From: Actinomadura alba
Lineage (GTDB): Bacteria > Actinomycetota > Actinomycetes > Streptosporangiales > Streptosporangiaceae
Length of the DNA stretch: 64,000 bases
Direction of reading: 5' to 3'
NCBI RefSeq assembly: GCF_039530285.1
Contig: NZ_BAAAOK010000005.1
Span: 289,961 to 353,960 of the forward strand
Below the pieces are notes generated by a model. It saw nothing but the letters and a program-made list of their open reading frames with translations. It did no database searches and had not been told where the DNA came from. Below are positions 37,201-46,005 of the stretch, piece by piece. Every line of letters starts with the position of its first letter. The first letter of the stretch is position 1. The position numbers and the translations under genes were made by a program.

Positions 37201-38400
37201 GTGGCAATCTCACGACGCGACGCGCTATTCGCAGGAGCCGTGCTCACAGGGGCCTCGTTGACCGGACCCGTATCCGCCGCCAATGCGTCCGCCACCCCGC
37301 CGGCCACGTCGCCGGGAGCGGGCGGGAAGCGCATGCGCGCCAGGGAGTTCGGCGTCACCCCCGGCGGCCTCCCCACCGGGAAGCACAACGCGATCACGGA
37401 CGTGACCGGCGTACGAGTCGGCCACGTGACCCTGAACCGCGGCAAGAACGTACGGACCGGAGTGACGGCGATCCTCCCGCACACCGGCAACCTGTTCCAG
37501 GAGAAAGTGCCAGGAGCGGTGTTCATCGGCAACGCGTTCGGGAAGCTTGCAGGTTCCACTCAGGTCCAGGAGCTCGGCACGATCGAGACGCCCATCGTGC
37601 TCACCAACACGCTCAGCGTGGGACGTGCTGTGGACGCCGTGGTCGGCTGGACACTCGAGCAGCCGGGCAACGAGGGCGTCCGCTCGGTCAACGCACTGGT
37701 CGGCGAGACCAACGACGGGACCTTGAACGACATCCGGGGCCGTCATGTCAGCGCACAAGACGTCGAGAAGGCGATCGAGAACGCCACCGAGGGACCGGTG
37801 ACCGAAGGAGCGGTCGGCGCGGGGACCGGGACGATCTGTTTCGGCTGGAAGGGCGGCGTCGGCACCGCGTCACGTGTGCTTCCCAGCGGCTACACCGTCG
37901 GCGTCCTCGTCCAGACCAACTACGGCGGCACGCTGATGATCGAAGGCGTGCCGGTCGGCGAGGAGCTCAAGCCACCGGCCGCCGCTGCGGCCGAGCCGGA
38001 CACCGGCTCGTCGGCGGACGGCTCCTGCATGATGGTGATCGCCACCGACGCGCCCCTCGGCGAGCGCAATCTCGAGCGGCTGGCCGCGAGAGCCAACTTC
38101 GGGCTGGCCCGGACGGGGTCGGCGTACTCCAACGGCAGCGGCGACTTCGCCATCGCGTTCTCGGCCGCACCAGGGCTGCGGGTGCGGCACGGGGAGACGG
38201 CCGCACGTCCGTACACCCTGCTGCCGAACGACGCGATGTCCCCCTTCTTCCAGGCGGCGCTGGAGGCCACGGAGGAGGCCGTCTACAACTCGCTCTTCAT
38301 GGCCACCACGACGACCGGCAACGGCAGGACCATCGAGGCACTCCCCCTCGACGGGGTCCGCGCGCTGTTCGAGAAGTACGGCAGGAACCCCGCGGGCTGA
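37201..38400 (+). CDS. Tat-secreted DmpA/OAT (S58) family aminopeptidase/amidase
   Basis: 399 aa; Tat motif SRRDALFAGAV; GVTAILPHTGN and GSGDFAIAFS autoproteolytic-site signatures; GTG start after AAGGTGGGCGG. Confidence 0.7.
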   Translation: MAISRRDALFAGAVLTGASLTGPVSAANASATPPATSPGAGGKRMRAREFGVTPGGLPTGKHNAITDVTGVRVGHVTLNRGKNVRTGVTAILPHTGNLFQEKVPGAVFIGNAFGKLAGSTQVQELGTIETPIVLTNTLSVGRAVDAVVGWTLEQPGNEGVRSVNALVGETNDGTLNDIRGRHVSAQDVEKAIENATEGPVTEGAVGAGTGTICFGWKGGVGTASRVLPSGYTVGVLVQTNYGGTLMIEGVPVGEELKPPAAAAAEPDTGSSADGSCMMVIATDAPLGERNLERLAARANFGLARTGSAYSNGSGDFAIAFSAAPGLRVRHGETAARPYTLLPNDAMSPFFQAALEATEEAVYNSLFMATTTTGNGRTIEALPLDGVRALFEKYGRNPAG

Positions 38401-38592
38401 CCCGCGGGGTGTCTTCGACGGCGGCCCGGCGTGGCTCCGGTCGACTCATGGTTCGCCGGAACCACGCCGAGCAACCGTTCGAACGCGCCGGAATGATCGG
38501 CACAGGCGTCTACATGCGCATGACACCGACCATGTCCGGACTCCGCCCCGCGGGAGCGCGGGGCCGGCCGACGACGTGGAGATGGCGCGGCA

Positions 38593-39330
38593 CTATGACG
38601 CGGCGGGCCGTCCGTGGTGGTGATGTTGCGGCCGCACGACCGGACGCGACAACCCGGGGTGGTGCTGATGGTGATGTTGCGGCCGGACGATCGGGCGCGA
38701 CCATCCGGGGTGGTGATGGTGATGGTGGTACGGGGGTCCGATCGGACGCGACCATCCCGGGTGCGGCAGCACGACGACCGGACGCGTCACGCCAGGCTGG
38801 TACTGCGGTACGACCATCAGCGTCTCGGCCACCGGGCGTGGGAGGCGCGGCACGCACTGCACGGTGACATCGCCGGTGACCGGGGTGTTCACGTTGAGCG
38901 TGATGCTGTTGACACTCAGCAGATCGGTTCCGGGTGCGGCCGGCGCCCAGTCGCCGGTGAGGTCACCAGAGATCGGCTGTCGTGCCGGCACGAACCCTCC
39001 AGAGCCGGTCAGCTGGAACGACGTGCTCTCCGCGCCACTGACGTCGACCCACGCGGACGCGTTCCAGGAGCCGATGGCGACCGGTGAGCCCAGGTTCAGG
39101 CGGGAGATGTGCAGCCGGAAGCCGGCCGGGCTGCCGGCGGCCGTCTGCCCCGGTGAGGTCAGCCAGCCGTCGAGGCCGACGATTCGCGATCCCAGTACCG
39201 GAACGGTGCACGTGTAGGCCGCGGAGAAGCTACCGGCGTGTGCGGGTTTCTGAGCGGCGATGGCCATGAGGCCACCGAGTGCGGCGACCGTGGCGGCGAC
39301 CACGGCGTGCTTGCCGAGCGAGGTGATCAT
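38593..39330 (-). CDS. secreted protein with C-terminal His-rich tandem repeats (PGWSRPxxxPxHHHH)
   Basis: 245 aa; signal peptide MITSLGKHAVVAATVAALGGLMAIAAQKPAHA (GAAGGAG SD); C-terminus PHPGWSRPIGPPYHHHHHHPGWSRPIVRPQHHHQHHPGLSRPVVRPQHHHHGRP. Confidence 0.55.
   Translation of the reverse strand: MITSLGKHAVVAATVAALGGLMAIAAQKPAHAGSFSAAYTCTVPVLGSRIVGLDGWLTSPGQTAAGSPAGFRLHISRLNLGSPVAIGSWNASAWVDVSGAESTSFQLTGSGGFVPARQPISGDLTGDWAPAAPGTDLLSVNSITLNVNTPVTGDVTVQCVPRLPRPVAETLMVVPQYQPGVTRPVVVLPHPGWSRPIGPPYHHHHHHPGWSRPIVRPQHHHQHHPGLSRPVVRPQHHHHGRPAAS
38617..38810. repeat. Imperfect ~45-51-bp tandem repeats (about 4 units) encoding the His-rich repeats
   Basis: Units …GGTGGTGATGTTGCGGCCG(C/G)ACGA(C/T)CGG(A/G)CGCGAC(A/C)A(C/T)CCGG… seen directly. 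Confidence 0.55.
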
Positions 39331-39555
39331 CTGAGCTCCTTCGGAGTTCCGTCTCAGAGATCGACGTCATCATGAGCGCACGGTCGGGCGCGGGCTTGGC
39401 ACGGCCCCTTTTGCCGGTGCTGTTGACGATCAGTACCGACCGGTGATCGAACCATGACATGCCGCATCGAGAATCCGGCTAGGTGGACGGCACGACCGGC
39501 GGCCGGGCCGGATCGTCCAGCGGCGGGCGTGCGGGTGCTTCGGGCCGACCGACGG

Positions 39556-40101
39556 TCAGGCTCGCGCGCGCAGTACGCGCATGGCCGCCAGAACCTCGTC
39601 GCGGTTGCCGGCGGCCTTCATCCAGGCCGGCAGCCGCTCGAGCATGCTGCCCGAACCCGTCCACGGGTGGCGCTCACGCAGACGTGCGGTCACGTACCGC
39701 TCAAGAAGCTCCAGATGAGCGGCGTTGTAGGCCCACAGCACCCGCCCGCCACAGCACGGACGCCGTAGCCACAGCGGCAGCCCGAAGAACGGATCGTCCG
39801 GCCCCGTCAGGCGGGGAACGGCCACCGAACCGCCGCCGAAGAAGTACACGTCGCGGTCGCCGGGACGCATTGGGCGGGGCGACCATTCGTCGGTGTGCCC
39901 GCAACCCGGGCAGCTCAGCCGGTGCGGCGCGGTGAGCAGGGCGACGGCGTACCGCTGATCTTCACGATGGTCGGGATGGACGACGACCACCGCCCGGCCG
40001 GCGCAACGAGGGCAGCGTACGAGGATCTCCTGGGCGAACCGCCACAACCGCGACCCGGGATCGCGGAAGCGGTCGTCGCCCGTCTCCCCTGCCTCGCCCA
40101 T
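39556..40101 (-). CDS. hypothetical zinc-ribbon protein
   Basis: 181 aa; CxxC...CxxC (CPRCAG...CPGCGH) plus RPCCGGR; no further assignment. Confidence 0.45.
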   Translation of the reverse strand: MGEAGETGDDRFRDPGSRLWRFAQEILVRCPRCAGRAVVVVHPDHREDQRYAVALLTAPHRLSCPGCGHTDEWSPRPMRPGDRDVYFFGGGSVAVPRLTGPDDPFFGLPLWLRRPCCGGRVLWAYNAAHLELLERYVTARLRERHPWTGSGSMLERLPAWMKAAGNRDEVLAAMRVLRARA

Positions 40102-40486
40102 GCCTCATGATCGTAGCCTCGGCCGCCCGCACTGCCAGCGGCAAGTCGATGCCCAGCCGCTCTTTCGTGCGGATACAAGACAGTCCCACTCAGGCGATCA
40201 TCACAGCACGGCGTCAACTGGACACAATCGGCAATGAACGGTCGGTCAAGCCCTTGGTTTGTGCAGTGAGGCGCCGGTACGCTCTGAGGCGCTGTAAATC
40301 TAAATGCCGCACGTTGTGAGGGAAGTCGGCTGACACCGGTCCGCCGGATCCCACTCTGTGCAATGGGCGCCGGACTCGTACACGTTAGGTGACCTGGGTT
40401 TATTCGCAATTGGCGCCACCGTGGCGGCCCTGCGGCCACGACCCTAGGTCCTTGCCTTTCACCGGCGCGGGGTGAGGAGGAGACCA

Positions 40487-40618
40487 GTGACCGAACCTGA
40501 GCCCGAGATCGAGGGTGTCGAGGAGATCGACGTGCCCGAGGTTCCGGAGCCCGAGGACCCCGAGGAGGGCGTCATCGATCCCGGCGACACCCATGTCGAG
40601 GGGGTCGACGCGAAATGA
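40487..40618 (+). CDS. small acidic peptide (43 aa, pI very low)
   Basis: GTG after GGTGAGGAGGAG SD: MTEPEPEIEGVEEIDVPEVPEPEDPEEGVIDPGDTHVEGVDAK; stop TGA overlaps next ATG (ATGA); below ORF-track size cutoff. Confidence 0.3.
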   Translation: MTEPEPEIEGVEEIDVPEVPEPEDPEEGVIDPGDTHVEGVDAK

Positions 40619-40719
40619 AACTGGAGAAGCACTCGGTGTTCGGCTGGCCCACGAGCGGCGCGGGTTCCACCTCGCCGCGCAACGGAATCGCCGTTCAGCA
40701 CAATTCCCAGGGTAAATCA
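40615..40719 (+). pseudogene. 5' fragment (~35 codons) of a PGRP/amidase_2 peptidoglycan amidase gene, truncated by the downstream Endo VII gene
   Basis: MKLEKHSVFGWPTSGAGSTSPRNGIAVQHNSQG matches N-terminus of intact amidase at 41293 (MKIEKRSVFGWPSSGAGHAAPKNGIAIHYDGSNQG); frame then degenerates. Confidence 0.4.
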
Positions 40720-40733
40720 ACTAAAATTGAGCC

Positions 40734-41303
40734 ATGGAAATGCCCCTCACAACTAAGCGTTGTGTCGCGTGTGAATCAGAGAAGCCCCTCTCTGATTTCC
40801 ATCGCAGGTCGGTCTCTCCTGACGGCAGGCACTATTACTGCAAGTCGTGCCGCAGGGACATGCGGTTAAAGCGCTATGAGCCACACCGGAAGAAGCCGAT
40901 CCTGCCGGACGGTCTGCGGCGCTGTGGCGGGTGCATGACCGTGAAGCCGATCGCCGAGTTCGCAAACGGTGGGCGCGGCGGCTGCAAGGACTGCGCCGCC
41001 GCCCGGCAGCTCAAGTATCTGTACGGAATCACCGTCGCGGAGTACGAGGCGCTGCTGGCTGCGCAAGGTGGCCAGTGTGGGATCTGCGGCGTGGGTGAAT
41101 GCCTGAGCGGCCAGAGGTTCTCGGTTGACCACGATCATTCGTGTTGCCCCAAGCGCTCGTGCGGCAAGTGCGTTCGAGGGCTCCTGTGTCGGCACTGCAA
41201 CGCCGCCCTTGGCCTGTTCCGAGACTCGCCAGAACTGCTGGCGCGCGCGCAATCGTGGCTCCGGCCCAATGGAGTTATGAAGGGACCGGGTAATGAAGAT
41301 TGA
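40734..41303 (+). CDS. phage T4 endonuclease VII-family nuclease (free-standing HNH-like/homing-type)
   Basis: 189 aa; Endo VII signature FSVDHDHSCCPKRSCGKCVRGLLCRHCNAALGLF plus N-terminal Cys4 (CVACE...CKSCR); local GC drops to ~55%. Confidence 0.75.
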   Translation: MEMPLTTKRCVACESEKPLSDFHRRSVSPDGRHYYCKSCRRDMRLKRYEPHRKKPILPDGLRRCGGCMTVKPIAEFANGGRGGCKDCAAARQLKYLYGITVAEYEALLAAQGGQCGICGVGECLSGQRFSVDHDHSCCPKRSCGKCVRGLLCRHCNAALGLFRDSPELLARAQSWLRPNGVMKGPGNED

Positions 41304-42033
41304 GAAGCGGTCGGTGTTTGGTTGGCCATCCAGCGGTGCTGGCCATGCTGCGCCGAAGAATGGGATTGCCATTCACTACGACGGGTCGAATCAGGGGCTG
41401 GCGAAGAAGAGTCATTCCGCGTGCCGTACCTACTGGGCCCGAACCCGCAAGTTCCACATGGGCCCGAGCCGGAGATGGGCCGATGTCGGATACAGCTTTG
41501 CGGTCTGTCCACATGGAATCGTCCTCGAGGGCCGCGGGCTCAACAAGGTCCAGGCCGCGCAGCCCGGCGGAAATGCCACCTGGTACTCGGTGACGTTCAT
41601 GAGCGGCCCGTCCGAGTCGCCGACGGCCGCTCAGATCAACGCGTTCCGGGAGTTGCGGGCCTGGCTCAGAGGCAAGGGCGTCAAGGCGGCACTGAAACCG
41701 CACAGTGCTTTCATCTCGACGTCGTGCTGCGGGGACATCCTCCGCCGTCTGATCAGCAACGGAACCCTCGCCTCGACCAAACCTTTCGAAGAGGAGCTGG
41801 ACATGGATGCCCAGGACGTGTTCAAGGCCGTATGGGAGCGGGACTCCATCCCCGCCCCTCCCGGTGGCCCGAGCGGCCCGAACTGGAAGGGCGCGTCCTT
41901 CTTGACGAACACCTACCGCGACATGGCGAAGGCCTCCGAGGTCAAGGCCCTACGCACCGAGGTCAGCGAGTTGAAGTCCGAGCTCGCCGAAATCAAGGAA
42001 CTGCTCAGCGCCGCCCTGCCCCCCAAGGAGTGA
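41293..42033 (+). CDS. N-acetylmuramoyl-L-alanine amidase (PGRP/amidase_2 domain) with C-terminal coiled coil
   Basis: 246 aa; Zn-ligand/conserved positions IAIHYDGS, WADVGYSFAV, KPHSAFISTSCCGD align with T7 lysozyme motifs; C-terminal EVKALRTEVSELKSELAEIKELL. Confidence 0.7.
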   Translation: MKIEKRSVFGWPSSGAGHAAPKNGIAIHYDGSNQGLAKKSHSACRTYWARTRKFHMGPSRRWADVGYSFAVCPHGIVLEGRGLNKVQAAQPGGNATWYSVTFMSGPSESPTAAQINAFRELRAWLRGKGVKAALKPHSAFISTSCCGDILRRLISNGTLASTKPFEEELDMDAQDVFKAVWERDSIPAPPGGPSGPNWKGASFLTNTYRDMAKASEVKALRTEVSELKSELAEIKELLSAALPPKE

Positions 42034-42377
42034 CGAGTCCCGGCGGCGGCGTTGTCGAGCTGATCCGCACCAGCGTGCCGCACACGGCATCGCGGCGTGC
42101 CGGCCTCGCCGCCGCCTGACACCTCTCGGGCCCGATCCACGCCGACGCCTTGAGGCGCCAGGGGCCCGGACTCGGTGAAATACATGCGCGATTCTCAGGA
42201 CATCTCGAATCACTGTTTACTGTGGCCCCAAATAAGACAATCAATAAGAGTGACCGTTCATCCACAGGACGCACGGCCTCAAGGGTCTATCGTGAAAGCG
42301 GGTCGATTGTCCTGAGTGGAACAGGGGCTGCTCGGTATAAGCGGTGAGCCTGCCCAGTACCGGTGAGGAGGCGCCCG

Positions 42378-43163
42378 GTGCGCCCGGAGATCGTTATTGG
42401 GATTCTGTCCGTCATCGCCACCATCTCAGCGGCGCTGATCCAGCGCAGTTGGAACTGGCGGTCCAGGCGATTTCCGCGCAGCCGTGAGGCGCTGACCTTC
42501 GGTGCGATTCAGGAGAGCGGATCGTTCAGCCTCGACGAGGTCGCGAAAGTTCTCGATCTGCGGAACAGTCCGGGATCGCCGGGGCAGGCCGTGCTGAACG
42601 ACACCTACCTCGTCCGGCGCCAGTCCGAGAAGGGAAACGGACTGGTCTCGATCTACAGCACCAGCGGGGAACTGGAGGGCGACTGCCTCAGCCATCCGCA
42701 CAATCACACCTGGGGCCCGTACGGTTCTGCGCACATGAGGGTCAACCGCGCGATGGCCGTCGACCTCTCCCATCTCGCCGATCAGAGCGTCACGCGAGTC
42801 GTCCACCAGGTCGTCTTCACGGGCGCCTACGACAACACGCCGACGGAGAACTTCGAGACCCATATCGAGCGGCCGACCCGCGCGCTGGTGTTCATCCTGC
42901 TGTTCTCGGCGGACCGTCCGTGCACCAGCGTCACCGGGCACCTTCAGGTCGGCAGGCGGCAACGAACGCCGACGGATCGGGAGAGAGGCCCCGTCCTGCT
43001 TCGACAGGGCACGATCGCCTATTGGCGCATCGTTCCCAACAAAGGTGAGTGGCTTCCGGAGGAGGCCAATTATCGGATCGAATGGAACTGGCGGTCAAGG
43101 CGGCTCGGCTCCGAAGACGATACCGGAGAATCGGCGGCCGACGGTGTGCAGGGGGCGCAGTGA
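42378..43163 (+). CDS. hypothetical membrane-anchored protein
   Basis: GTG 42378 after GGTGAGGAGG; N-terminal TM IVIGILSVIATISAALI; motif WNWRSRR occurs near both termini. Confidence 0.45.
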   Translation: MRPEIVIGILSVIATISAALIQRSWNWRSRRFPRSREALTFGAIQESGSFSLDEVAKVLDLRNSPGSPGQAVLNDTYLVRRQSEKGNGLVSIYSTSGELEGDCLSHPHNHTWGPYGSAHMRVNRAMAVDLSHLADQSVTRVVHQVVFTGAYDNTPTENFETHIERPTRALVFILLFSADRPCTSVTGHLQVGRRQRTPTDRERGPVLLRQGTIAYWRIVPNKGEWLPEEANYRIEWNWRSRRLGSEDDTGESAADGVQGAQ

Positions 43164-44191
43164 TCGGATCGTCGACAGCGGGGCGAGCGGACGGCGTGGC
43201 ATCAGCCGATCAGATCGATTTCTGGCGGCCGGCTCGGAAATTCCCGGAGCACTACCCGGGCGAATGCCCGCTTGCGGACTACCTTTTGTGGAATCGGCAC
43301 GTTCACCCGCTCGAGTACAGCGACACGGCCGGATTCGTCATCGGCGGCAACGAGCATCGGTCACTGGACGACCTGCTGGCCGCACTGGAACTTCCCGGCC
43401 TGGCGGAACGCACTCCCGTCCTCGCCTATGGGGCCAACCGGAATCCGGCGACGCTGCATGTCAAGCTCCTGAACTACGGTTACCGATCACCCAACGGCAC
43501 GGATTGGTGCGTCCCGGTGTTGCGTGGAGAACTGCACGGTGCGGACGTCGCCGTCGCGGGGCTGCACGGTCACGGCTATCTCTACGGAGAACTACTGCTG
43601 AACACCGAGTACAGCCGTGACGCGGTGCTACAGGCGCGCATCTGCCTGGTCGACGCCGACCAACTCCGGGTTCTCAATGACAGCGAGGAGATCAGAGAAG
43701 GCAGCTACCATCTGGCGCGGATCCCCCGGACCCGGCTCGTCAGCACGGGAGCGCCGGTGCAGACGCTGGGATACGTCGCCAACGCCCACACCTGGTCGTC
43801 GCCCGTCCACGGGACACCGATCGGATACACCTCCGTCCAGGCCACCGGCCGCAGGTACCCGTCGATGACCGCGACCGACGGCCTGGCCCATGCGCTCGAC
43901 GCGCTCGACATCCGGAGGCAGGTCAGCGCACTGTCCGGCATCGCCGACGACGACCGGATGGCGGCCGAGCTGGCAAAGTACCTGAACGGCCAGTGGTGGT
44001 ACCGGTTCCAGACCGGTCAGGCACCCATCGCCGGCTACGAGAGCATCCTGGAAATCTTCCGCGCCGCGATGGCCGACAGCAGCCTGCCCGTCCGCACCTA
44101 TGACCACCTCGCCGAACTGGGTCAGATCATTCCTGTCGAAGCCGCCTACTCCCCCGACAACCTGCTTGGCCGGGTCCAGCCGAACGACTAG
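43160..44191 (+). CDS. hypothetical protein with N-terminal gamma-glutamylcyclotransferase-like (AIG2/GGCT) domain
   Basis: GTG overlapping upstream stop (GTGA); VLAYGANRNPATLHVKL resembles YGSN motif of GGCT fold; C-terminal ~170 aa unknown. Confidence 0.45.
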   Translation: MIGSSTAGRADGVASADQIDFWRPARKFPEHYPGECPLADYLLWNRHVHPLEYSDTAGFVIGGNEHRSLDDLLAALELPGLAERTPVLAYGANRNPATLHVKLLNYGYRSPNGTDWCVPVLRGELHGADVAVAGLHGHGYLYGELLLNTEYSRDAVLQARICLVDADQLRVLNDSEEIREGSYHLARIPRTRLVSTGAPVQTLGYVANAHTWSSPVHGTPIGYTSVQATGRRYPSMTATDGLAHALDALDIRRQVSALSGIADDDRMAAELAKYLNGQWWYRFQTGQAPIAGYESILEIFRAAMADSSLPVRTYDHLAELGQIIPVEAAYSPDNLLGRVQPND

Positions 44192-44355
44192 CGGCTGGCC
44201 CTCAGCCTGCTCAAGGTCGGCTAACGATCGATCGGCGCGCCCTTCCCGGGTGCCGTCGTGTCGTCACATGCCCAGTGATCCTTCAGCTACTTGACACTGC
44301 ACGACAAGTACTGGACGATCGCCGTCAAGTGGCGACAGGGCGAAGGGGATGCAAG

Positions 44356-44847
44356 GTGACGAACTGGCCGCCTGACCGGGACGAGCTCACCCGGCAACTG
44401 ATCCGCATCGTGGAGATCAGGCTGCTCGACCCCATCGAGATCCTGCTCGAAGACGGTGCGACGACCGGGGCGCTCCAGCGCATGGTCCAGGCCAAGGCCA
44501 CCAGCTGGGCCGCTCTGCTGCTCGGCGAGGACGACCAGGCGGCGGCGCTGACGGCGGCACGGCTCATAGCGGCCCTGTATCCCGGCGACACGGCGCTGGA
44601 ACCGCCCGCGGACTGGTGGCGGACCCCGTTCGGCCGGGTCGTGGCACACCGGCTGGGCCATCCGAGCACGCAGGCCGTCTCGTACTCGGTCGCCGGCGCG
44701 ATGCTGGGCATCACCCGGCAAGGCGTCCACGACCTCGTTTCGAGAGGCAAGCTGGCCCGTCACCCGGACGGCGGCGTGCTCGTCACCTCCATCCGCTCCC
44801 GCCTCAACCGTGACGACAGCCGAACCACCAGCGGAGGGAAATCATGA
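44356..44847 (+). CDS. helix-turn-helix DNA-binding protein (excisionase/MerR-like C-terminal HTH)
   Basis: GTG 44356 after GAAGGGGA; C-terminal VSYSVAGAMLGITRQGVHDLVSRGKLARHPDGGVLV. Confidence 0.4.
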   Translation: MTNWPPDRDELTRQLIRIVEIRLLDPIEILLEDGATTGALQRMVQAKATSWAALLLGEDDQAAALTAARLIAALYPGDTALEPPADWWRTPFGRVVAHRLGHPSTQAVSYSVAGAMLGITRQGVHDLVSRGKLARHPDGGVLVTSIRSRLNRDDSRTTSGGKS

Positions 44848-45863
44848 AGCTGCTCATCATCGGAGGGACGTCGTTCGTCGGTCGCGCGGTCGCGACCGAG
44901 GCCGTCCGGCGCGGTCATGAGGTCGCCACCTTCAACCGGGGCCGTACCGGACCGGACGTGCCGGGCGTCACGGCGATCCGCGGGGACCGGTCCACGGATG
45001 AGGGGGTGCGGCCACTGGCCGGCCGCTCCTTCGATGCCGCGCTCGACCCGGGCGGGCTCGTCCCCGCCCACGTCCGCCGCACCGCCCAAGCCCTGACCGG
45101 CACGGTCCCCTACTACGCCTACGTGTCGACGACCGCGGTGTACCGCGACTGGACGAACCTGCCGTGGGACGAGGACTCCCCCCTGCACGACGGCGCGCCG
45201 GACGATGACGGCGACCCGGCGGACCTGCGTCTCCTCGCGCCGCGAAAGGCCGGTTGCGAGCGTGCGGTCCGCGAGGCTTACGGTACGGACGCCTCGCTGA
45301 TCCTGCGGCCGGGACTGATCGTCGGGCCGTACGACAACGTCGGCATGCTCCCGTGGTGGCTCACCCGGATCCAGCGGGGCGGCCGGGTGCTCGCCCCGGG
45401 CGACCCCGGCCGGCCGCTGCAGGTCACCGACGCCCGCGACATCGCGGTCTTCCTGCTCGACCAGATCGAGACCGGCCGGGCCGGGGTGTTCAACACGGTG
45501 CCTGACGAACCGGACACGACGATCGGCGGCTGCCTCGCCGCATGTGCGGCGGCGACGAGTTCCGGCGCCGAACTCGTCTGGACGCCCGACGAGTTCCTCA
45601 TGGAACAGGGCGCGCAGCCCTGGACGGAAGTGCCCTTCTGGCTGCCCTCGGCAGCCAATCCGGCCGCCGGTTGGCCGGCGTCCGGTGCCGCCGCGTCGGC
45701 CGCCGGTCTGAAATGCCGCCCGATCGGCGACACGGTCGAGGCGACCTGGGCGTGGCTGAGGGACGGCGGTGTCGTGCGGCGAATGGCGGGCATGCCGGTC
45801 CCGGGCATCGACGGCGGCAAAGAGGCCCGCATCCTCGACGCCTGGACCGAGGCGTCTCGCTGA
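44844..45863 (+). CDS. NAD-dependent epimerase/dehydratase-family (extended SDR) protein
   Basis: 339 aa; MKLLIIGGTSFVGRAVATEAVRRGHEV Rossmann N-terminus; ATGA overlap with upstream gene. Confidence 0.8.
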   Translation: MKLLIIGGTSFVGRAVATEAVRRGHEVATFNRGRTGPDVPGVTAIRGDRSTDEGVRPLAGRSFDAALDPGGLVPAHVRRTAQALTGTVPYYAYVSTTAVYRDWTNLPWDEDSPLHDGAPDDDGDPADLRLLAPRKAGCERAVREAYGTDASLILRPGLIVGPYDNVGMLPWWLTRIQRGGRVLAPGDPGRPLQVTDARDIAVFLLDQIETGRAGVFNTVPDEPDTTIGGCLAACAAATSSGAELVWTPDEFLMEQGAQPWTEVPFWLPSAANPAAGWPASGAAASAAGLKCRPIGDTVEATWAWLRDGGVVRRMAGMPVPGIDGGKEARILDAWTEASR

Positions 45864-46005
45864 TCCGTACCCATGAGGGCCCGGCGGCAGGACGAGCAAA
45901 CCCGTGGCGACGCCCGCCTTCGCGGCGCCGACGGCCGCACTGGCCGCGCCGGGGAGCGATTGCTGTAATGAAGGTGTGCCGAGCTCCGCTCCGCCGGTGA
46001 CCCGT

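Follow-up and report, generated by a model that had tools for sequence, protein, structure and literature searches.

A probable fossil of endonuclease homing at the start of a phage-type amidase gene in the chromosome of Actinomadura alba

How does a nuclease gene come to lie between two copies of the start of one lysin gene? The question is raised by a locus of Actinomadura alba in a stretch of 64,000 nucleotides (nt) of contig NZ_BAAAOK010000005.1 (assembly GCF_039530285.1, positions 289,961 to 353,960 of the forward strand), which is called the window in the following; coordinates are counted from its first base. The window is A. alba chromosome, and the locus is also found on contig JABVEC010000044.1 of assembly GCA_014323705.1, in which the genes for a 43-amino-acid (aa) peptide, a 189-aa Endonuclease_7 protein and a 246-aa amidase are annotated consecutively. 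The locus is probably the fossil of a homing event, in which the gene for a free-standing homing endonuclease with an Endo VII (DHHRN) motif was copied into an orphan lysin module. The insert is best explained as a cassette of 36 nt of AT-rich DNA, a nuclease open reading frame (ORF) of 570 nt and a substitute for roughly the initial 70-84 nt of the amidase gene. By the same explanation the amidase gene remains complete and is translated from a new ATG at 41293. The locus is made up of the following features.

40164 to 40486, plus strand: conserved non-coding leader of the orphan lysin module (similarity to Actinomadura sp. HBU206391)
40487 to 40618, plus strand: gene for a highly acidic peptide of 43 aa, conserved upstream of amidase genes of this family (GTG start, annotated by NCBI)
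40615 to 40697, plus strand: apparent resident start of the amidase gene, reduced to a pseudogene fragment of 83 nt (homology to relatives)
40698 to 40733, plus strand: AT-rich 5' edge of the putative inserted cassette, 36 nt with 38% guanine plus cytosine (GC) (no homology to amidase loci)
40734 to 41303, plus strand: free-standing Endo VII-motif (DHHRN / beta-beta-alpha-Me) endonuclease gene, 189 aa (Pfam, PHROG, motif, model)
41293 to 41376, plus strand: putative replacement for nt 1-84 of the amidase gene, which would have arrived with the nuclease gene (GC content at third codon positions (GC3), private substitutions)
41293 to 42033, plus strand: intact PGRP / Amidase_2-type N-acetylmuramoyl-L-alanine amidase gene, 246 aa (PHROG, structure matches)
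42034 to 42052, plus strand: short stretch after the stop codon, the right end of the module in common with HBU206391 (blastn and alignment)

The translation of 40615-40719 is identical to the N-terminus of the ORF at 41293 at 19 of 30 positions (BLASTP, E = 4e-14), and the fragment DNA matches homologous amidase genes elsewhere with 80-85% identity (E = 1e-18 to 1e-53). The ATG of the fragment overlaps the stop codon of the peptide gene (ATGA), and 40511-40697 as a whole are 84% identical to the peptide-plus-amidase-start region of L001, a prophage of the same A. alba genome (E = 2e-52; 71-85% for other relatives). An earlier sequence-only reading of this DNA had already taken the fragment for a copy of the amidase start. 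The comparison with the intact gene gives significant similarity and bears this out; the match is not about 35 codons long, as proposed there, but covers 83 nt (40615-40697), which are 27 codons and 2 nt. In every close relative the homology ends at 40697, inside the codon for His28, and the residues of the fragment past nt 83 (..QHNSQGKSTKIE) are read-through into the inserted DNA. No homology to any amidase locus compared was found for 40698-40733.

The fragment seems to be what is left of the resident amidase gene's own start. Its GC3 is 0.85, and that of 11 relatives is 0.85-1.00. The distances of its nt 4-84 to L001 and to the locus of Actinomadura sp. HBU206391 (L002) are 0.15 and 0.17, and those of nt 85-477 of the intact gene are 0.13 and 0.17; such near-equal distances are expected if the two parts were formerly one gene. 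The simplest reading of these sequences is that nt 1-83 in the fragment and nt ~85-741 in the intact copy once formed one gene, and that the incoming piece extends from 40698 to about 41376, comprising the AT-rich edge, the nuclease ORF and the substitute amidase start.

The start of the intact gene is aberrant in comparison to its relatives. Its 5' end (MKIEKRSVFGWPSSGAGHAAPK) is rich in A and T at third codon positions, and its first 28 codons, encoding MKIEKRSVFGWPSSGAGHAAPKNGIAIH, have a GC3 of 0.59 versus 0.85-1.00 in the 11 relatives. The mean distance of these codons to the relatives is 0.36, that of the other sequences 0.25-0.32. Private substitutions, which are defined as bases found in none of seven close relatives, number 13 in nt 1-84 as against 13 in the 393 nt from nt 85 to 477 (Fisher p = 1e-4), and the ratio of the rates in the 5' end and the rest is 4.7 for the intact gene and 0.4-2.1 for the relatives. 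The maximum-likelihood changepoint of these substitutions falls after nt 69, and the blastn alignments of several relatives to the intact gene begin only at 41350-41374. The right boundary of the putative replacement lies somewhere from nt 69 to about nt 93. Ahead of the ATG at 41293, no homology to the corresponding region of any relative could be detected. A remnant of the peptide gene 3' end in the last nuclease codons, as would be left if the donor nuclease had been situated at a peptide-amidase junction, was also considered and rejected; against 12 relatives and the fragment, the 45 nt upstream of 41293 gave local alignment scores no better than those of shuffled sequences.

An insert flanked by two copies of the same 83 nt could also go back to a tandem duplication of the amidase 5' region, after which the nuclease gene entered between the copies and one of them diverged rapidly, perhaps under selection for a new translation start. 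The 5' ends of genes are often lower in GC, which would suit such a course of events. However, the two copies are only 68% identical over nt 1-84 and each is closer to genes of other genomes than to its neighbor, a low 5' GC3 is seen in 0 of the 11 relatives, and the scenario takes two rare events, independent of each other, in the same place. We regard this duplication as very improbable. The sequence-only reading had left open if the nuclease gene had invaded the amidase gene or been duplicated beside it; the invasion is supported, while a plain duplication does not agree with an insert that appears to consist of the nuclease gene and a replacement amidase 5' end.

The break adjoins the DNA stretch which is most conserved among the relatives. 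The 11 nt after it, CACTACGACGG (CAC/T TAC GAC GG, coding for His28-Tyr-Asp-Gly), are almost invariant across 12 relatives, and third positions around this 11-mer vary among them. From the alignment to PGRP structures His28 is predicted to be the first zinc ligand of the amidase. The predicted site around nt 83 reads ..GCCGTnCAC|TACGACGG.., and the intact copy retains CACTACGACGG but has several bases that deviate from the consensus within the 20 nt on its left side; these differences could confer resistance to the nuclease. Homing endonucleases typically recognise conserved codons of catalytic sites. For an uncharacterised nuclease with an Endo VII motif, the locus predicts a cut site at about nt 83 of the amidase gene, in the codon of a zinc ligand.

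The product of the intact gene, for which NCBI has an A. alba protein of 100% identity, is by its similarities an amidase of the phage endolysin type. It matches the PHROG 1493 endolysin family (4.5e-35) and PGRP structures (E = 1.5e-6), with H28, H137 and C145 at the zinc-ligand positions, and the match to Pfam PF01510 Amidase_2 (25.6 bits) is marginally under the cut-off of 26.0. It has 57% identity to the annotated amidases of Thermobifida phages P318 and P1312. The spacing of 8 between the ligands His and Cys is the same as that of H122 and C130 in T7 lysozyme. C-terminally the protein has a coiled-coil-like tail. As had been noticed from the sequence, the ATG at 41293 lies 11 nt inside the nuclease ORF, which stops at 41301-41303. 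This overlap was rejected as a special feature of the insertion; the TGA is a conserved one provided by amidase codons 3-4 (xTT GAG), and an equal 11-nt overlap with the upstream ORF is also present in L001 and in L008, a prophage from a Streptomyces sp. metagenome-assembled genome.

What kind of nuclease is encoded by the insert? The 189-aa product of 40734-41303 had been assigned to the T4 endonuclease VII family because of its signature residues, and this assignment is well supported by Pfam PF02945 Endonuclease_7 (E = 8e-22, 77.3 bits with a cut-off of 23.6, residues 92-177) and by the PHROG endonuclease VII families (up to 9e-34). The only part of T4 Endo VII that aligns with it are residues 12-69, which cover the DHDH / RGLLC..CN..G signature. 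In this alignment C115/C118, D132, H133, D134 and H135 correspond to T4 C23/C26, D40, H41, D42 and H43, and R148, C152/C155 and N156 to T4 R54, C58/C61 and N62. The pattern CX2-4C...D-H-(D)-H...R...CX2C-N is thereby complete, and across 60 homologues its residues either do not vary or are conserved to 90% or more. The residues defining the DHHRN motif are needed in T4 Endo VII as well as in F-CphI, as mutagenesis has revealed (PMC6083498). At the position of T4 E65 the nuclease has a Leu, which was rejected as a sign of inactivity; each of the 120 proteins listed, that of the window among them, has L, I, V, M or A at this position (77 times L, 36 times I), and the Leu is by this comparison a trait of the subfamily.

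The catalytic core is preceded by two N-terminal CxxC...CxxC zinc-ribbon repeats. The cysteines of the first (C10, C13, C36, C39) are invariant or nearly so in the alignment of 60 homologues, and the window nuclease has the second at C64, C67, C84 and C87. An AlphaFold2 model (pLDDT 87.2) has the beta-beta-alpha-metal fold predicted for the core. In Foldseek searches it matched the restriction enzyme Hpy99I over the full length (probability 0.99), with a low TM-score that is put down to domain placement, and T4 Endo VII within the limits of the nuclease core (probability 1.00, with 81-100 columns aligned). A C-terminal position of the motif marks a clade of endonucleases, which includes homing and restriction enzymes and F-CphI, as opposed to a clade of resolvases (PMC6083498). 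Because of the C-terminal motif, the zinc-ribbon repeats and the Hpy99I-like predicted fold, the nuclease looks like a site-specific endonuclease rather than a resolvase.

An Endo VII gene could nevertheless be the Holliday-junction resolvase gene of a decayed prophage, stranded by deletion and unrelated to the duplicated amidase start. T4 Endo VII itself is a resolvase, and some Endo VII genes of prophages are thought to encode resolvases (PMC6083498). In the window protein, though, the motif is C-terminal (residues 92-177 of 189) with zinc-ribbon repeats before it, the C-terminal dimerisation half of T4 Endo VII has no counterpart, the best full-length structural match of the model is a restriction enzyme, and the related prophages (L001 over 16.7 kb, L008 and L103) are without such a gene near the lysin gene. 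A stranded resolvase gene is accordingly the explanation in which we put hardly any trust.

The distribution of the nuclease gene is sporadic. Relatives occur in 1799 phage records, mostly of actinophages and T7-like phages, and also in viral contigs. At 17 related amidase loci (L001, L002, L008-L019, L100-L103) the nuclease gene is not present; L001 lacks it in the 16.7 kb examined, and none is found near the lysin gene in L008 and L103. The ORF starts with its own ATG in a frame different from that of the fragment, and homologues cover the protein from residue 2-8 onward. By its free-standing status and its sporadic distribution it resembles homing endonuclease genes. The proposal that a homing-type nuclease gene entered the start of a lysin gene, in DNA of phage origin, is favored by family membership with intact catalytic residues, sporadic presence, the endolysin type of the amidase and the copy of the lysin region in prophage L001.

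The nuclease gene has a GC content of 62.5% and the amidase gene one of 63.7%; the GC3 of the nuclease gene is 0.74 versus 0.82-0.89 in host genes. Over intervals of 300 nt GC is 0.58-0.69 across ~40050-44400 and 0.70-0.77 in the flanks, and over intervals of 100 nt a dip to 0.46-0.59 is limited to ~40700-40900. The fall to 50-55% from about 40690, which had been described from the sequence, is real as a local dip and does not extend to the nuclease gene as a whole.

An intron-encoded homing endonuclease was considered and rejected. A search of 39900-42500 against Rfam with E <= 1, group I and group II introns included, gave no match, and the downstream amidase gene is complete with its own start, so splicing is not needed. 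For the same lack of Rfam matches, and with a leader fold of z = 0.11 against shuffled sequences, a group I intron, a riboswitch and a small RNA in or around the insert were rejected.

Is the resident partner a prophage? The neighboring genes are ordinary chromosomal ones (sigma factor, S58 peptidase, epimerase, hydrolases, regulators), and no integrase, tail, holin or other phage gene was found within 10 kb on either side of the module. Repeats resembling attachment sites, which together with an integrase could have marked an integrated phage, were in 38000-46000 just short and at chance level; the sole transfer RNA gene in the window is 9 kb away from the module. The locus is an orphan, prophage-derived lysin module composed of leader, acidic peptide gene and amidase gene, and not a prophage. 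That it might be a toxin or lysis module, as the sequence-only reading had offered as an option, found no support, since there is no holin gene and no small membrane-protein gene downstream of 42033, which leaves the amidase without a lysis-cassette partner. Membership of a defence system was likewise rejected; PADLOC gave just a weak similarity of the nuclease core to type II restriction enzymes (E = 0.002).

L001 shows how such a region is arranged in a complete-looking prophage. Its amidase is 87% identical to that of the window, and in its gene order tail genes and a collagen-like gene are followed by the gene for an acidic peptide of 41 aa, the amidase gene and two 72-aa ORFs, with an integrase gene ~6 kb beyond the lysin region, past a block of small ORFs. 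Comparable prophage or phage contexts are those of L008, L103 and Thermobifida phage P318. Small ORFs directly downstream and tail genes upstream of the amidase gene are present in L001 and L008, and the ORF of L008 is membrane-protein-like.

In L002 of Actinomadura sp. HBU206391 the peptide and amidase genes form an isolated pair amid metabolic genes, preceded by a leader of ~320 nt. The leader and most of the peptide gene in the window (40164-40611) are 74% identical to 7460-7897 of L002 and the flanking genes differ; window 41294-42052 aligns with L002 8002-8760 in blastn, with divergence past ~42052. The outer ends of the module, 40164 and 42052, are thus the same as in the nuclease-free module of L002, and ~680 extra bases lie inside the window copy. 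As both modules have these outer ends in common, the insertion would have occurred within a pre-existing module.

These data also bear on a rival explanation, in which illegitimate recombination, independent of the nuclease, linked a phage or prophage segment by chance with a resident amidase gene cut short at codon 28. The segment would have started just ahead of its Endo VII gene and included a complete amidase gene of its own, so that all of the intact amidase is of foreign origin and the nuclease a passenger. For such a joining speak the non-homologous left junction, the AT-biased private substitutions that extend along the whole intact gene and not just its start, and the peptide-amidase junction as a general hotspot which has taken up unrelated small genes (L008, L012, L101). 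On the other hand the match to the nuclease-free module of HBU206391 takes in the right end of the module up to 19 nt past the stop codon, which suggests a resident 3' part. Fragment nt 4-84 and intact nt 85-477 have near-equal distances to L001 and L002, the density of private substitutions falls sharply about where the fragment ends, and the 11-mer next to the break is the best conserved of the gene, as is typical of homing sites. We consider this rival rather unlikely and return to homing as the favored reading.

By homing, a related phage carrying the nuclease gene next to an amidase gene with a resistant site would have met the resident module. Cleavage by the nuclease would have hit the resident amidase gene at nt 83 or close to it, inside the almost invariant CACTACGACGG. 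The right-hand end would then have invaded the donor amidase gene, with synthesis running leftward through the donor amidase 5' end and the nuclease gene, and on the left side, where no usable homology was available, the new DNA would have been joined illegitimately to the broken end. Cleavage at nt 83, the direction of transfer and the mechanism are what we infer from the sequences. One-sided homology leading to illegitimate double-strand-break repair, and free-standing endonucleases co-converting flanking markers, are both known from T4 (PMC2988022). An amidase kept intact in this manner would explain why the insertion was tolerated.

Several observations weigh against a homing event, the first two of them against present activity of the nuclease. 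The same genome keeps a nuclease-free amidase allele with conserved CACTACGACGG in prophage L001, and the persistence of this allele indicates that the nuclease is silent or inactive or needs left-half bases which L001 does not have. No promoter or good Shine-Dalgarno sequence was found for the nuclease gene, and the fragment ORF runs over its start in another frame. The changepoint after nt 69, with its bound of ~nt 93, is derived from 84 nt of a single sequence, deeper in the gene private changes are AT-biased as well (12 of 13 in nt 85-477), and relaxed or locally accelerated evolution of the intact 5' end is conceivable. Among 5.8 billion proteins there is no close relative of the nuclease, the next best having 57% identity over 47% of the query. 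The best matches in viral contigs have 50-53% identity over partial length and ~40% over full length. Neither the protein database nor the viral contigs yielded a close nuclease relative from a donor or from other copies of the module, and near-identical nuclease copies at homologous sites elsewhere, which would speak for recent spread, were not found. In the lack of close relatives, therefore, neither a donor nor recent mobility is demonstrable.

As to expression of the nuclease gene, a -10-like TAAAAT is situated at 40723-40728, 6 nt upstream of the ATG, and it is a speculation that it could serve a leaderless transcript. The frame of the fragment is open for 84 codons (40615-40869) and passes the nuclease start, which is in a different frame. 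With the ATG of the fragment overlapping the stop codon of the peptide gene, translational coupling may carry ribosomes across the nuclease start and so dampen translation of the nuclease.

The orphan module might also be seen as a domesticated exclusion device, which is a very unlikely reading. In its terms the nuclease would cut the lysin genes of incoming Streptosporangiales phages at the His28-Tyr-Asp-Gly codons, the module's own amidase gene would be shielded by its recoded 5' end, and the conserved leader would be the regulatory region.

The homing event proposed here is of a known and expected kind, that of free-standing homing endonucleases beside actinophage lysin genes. Within Manuelvirus we compared the Streptomyces phages Manuel (L004) and WRightOn with Kumquat (L005), Zeigle and Abafar. 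In Manuel an Endo VII gene lies between the endolysin and portal genes; it is missing in Kumquat. This gene (L004 3268-3654) is an ORF-sized insertion of 388 nt in the last endolysin codons with a 5-nt overlap (CAGCC). The nuclease belongs to the same family as that of the window (36% identity), and in both cases it is present or absent beside an Amidase_2-type endolysin gene; sporadic insertion of Endo VII-family genes beside lysin genes of this type is an existing actinophage pattern. In contrast to the window, where the insert lies 83 nt into the 5' end and an 84-nt segment appears to be replaced, the cassette of Manuel is at the 3' end of the endolysin gene, and it is part of a phage genome and not of a remnant in a bacterial chromosome. 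The nuclease ORF of Manuel terminates on the original last codons of the endolysin gene.

With F-CphI of cyanophage S-PM2 and the DHHRN homing endonuclease family (PMC6083498) the window nuclease has in common a free-standing ORF, a C-terminal Endo VII catalytic motif with all DHHRN residues and a place directly beside the presumed target gene, in which the putative target falls in a highly conserved coding stretch. The activity of F-CphI and its cut site in psbA are experimental, whereas the cut site of the window nuclease is a prediction. What links the two is the common motif only; the N-terminal DNA-binding part of the window nuclease consists of two CxxC...CxxC zinc ribbons.

In the intronless homing of T4 by SegF, SegG and MobE, and for the td intron with homology to one exon (PMC2988022), free-standing endonucleases likewise act beside their target genes, the donor flank is co-converted and carries resistance, and one-sided homology leads to an illegitimate second junction. 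Those events were observed in crosses, while that of the window is reconstructed from a single fossil.

A parallel in layout comes from fungal mitochondria. There, free-standing endonuclease ORFs bring along a replacement gene end, and the displaced end stays behind as a fragment, for example at atp6 of Allomyces. It is the 3' end that is replaced, often in frame with the endonuclease, and the enzymes are of the GIY-YIG or LAGLIDADG families. As is proposed for the window, the mobile unit comprises an endonuclease ORF plus a substitute end of the target gene, the host gene is functional and the old end remains as a pseudogene piece. The window differs in that the 5' end would have been replaced, the nuclease is a separate upstream ORF and it belongs to another nuclease family.

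New findings at the locus include the exact left breakpoint at nt 83, the apparently resident character of the fragment and the aberrant 5' end of the intact gene. The locus would preserve the old gene start, now displaced, along with its incoming substitute, which are the two products of a homing-type event, and it would add the endolysin genes of Streptosporangiales phages to the target list of the Endo VII-motif nuclease family. It also points to the junction of acidic peptide and amidase genes as a recurrent entry point for extra genes.

The peptide gene at this junction had been recognised from the sequence together with its ribosome-binding site, and both are confirmed by the NCBI annotation and by the Shine-Dalgarno-like GGTGAGGAGGAG upstream of the GTG start. 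By tblastn, homologues are found immediately upstream of the amidase gene at at least 11 loci besides the window (L001, L002, L008, L009, L012, L015, L017, L018, L100, L101, L103). The peptide of ~40 aa has the conserved core EEIDVP.VPEPE.PEEGVIDP.DT.VEGVD and occurs in prophages of Streptosporangiales and relatives; it matches no Pfam, PHROG or NCBIfam family. It may serve in lysis control or as a partner of the tail or the lysin.

The peptide-amidase junction differs among the loci and looks like a hotspot for accessory genes. Both genes abut in L001, L009, L015, L017 and L103. Spacers are present in L002 (7898-8001, ~100 nt) and L018 (3816-4001, a gap of ~185 nt), a 79-aa ORF in L012 (1907-2146), and a 78-aa ORF together with a 94-aa protein matching Pfam Acb5 (PF26761) in L101 (1935-2501). 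In L008 (5558-6011) a 113-aa ORF sits between the two genes, bracketed by a diverged direct duplication (22/28 nt) of the peptide gene 3' end. An insert with a diverged target copy is the same signature as in the window, here without a nuclease gene.

The leader upstream of the peptide gene contains an invariant 26-mer, CCGGTACGCTCTGAGGCGCTGTAAAT, at 40274-40299. The 26-mer is not found in viral contigs, nor its 24-nt core in metagenome contigs. The leader has no Rfam match, no unusually stable fold (z = 0.11) and no consensus promoter, and neither consensus promoters nor terminators were found in 39900-42500. With this leader, the minimal lysin module is present at two unrelated chromosomal places, in A. 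alba and in HBU206391.

The lower-GC stretch of ~40050-44400 may be a larger acquired island. Inside it, downstream of the module, lie three ORFs of ~261, 331 and 163 aa according to the NCBI annotation. No Pfam, PHROG, NCBIfam or PADLOC match was obtained for the ORFs 42363-43163 and 43049-44191, nor for 39556-40101 (minus strand, 181 aa with CxxC pairs), and 44275-44847 has just a weak, sub-threshold match to Pfam TetR_C_14. Further upstream, the ORF 38593-39330 (minus strand, 245 aa) belongs to no Pfam, PHROG or NCBIfam family; its product has a signal-peptide-like N-terminus and a histidine-rich repeat end (PGWSRP...HHHHHH). These repeats are encoded by three to four tandem units of 51 nt at 38615-38803, which are 61-86% identical to each other.

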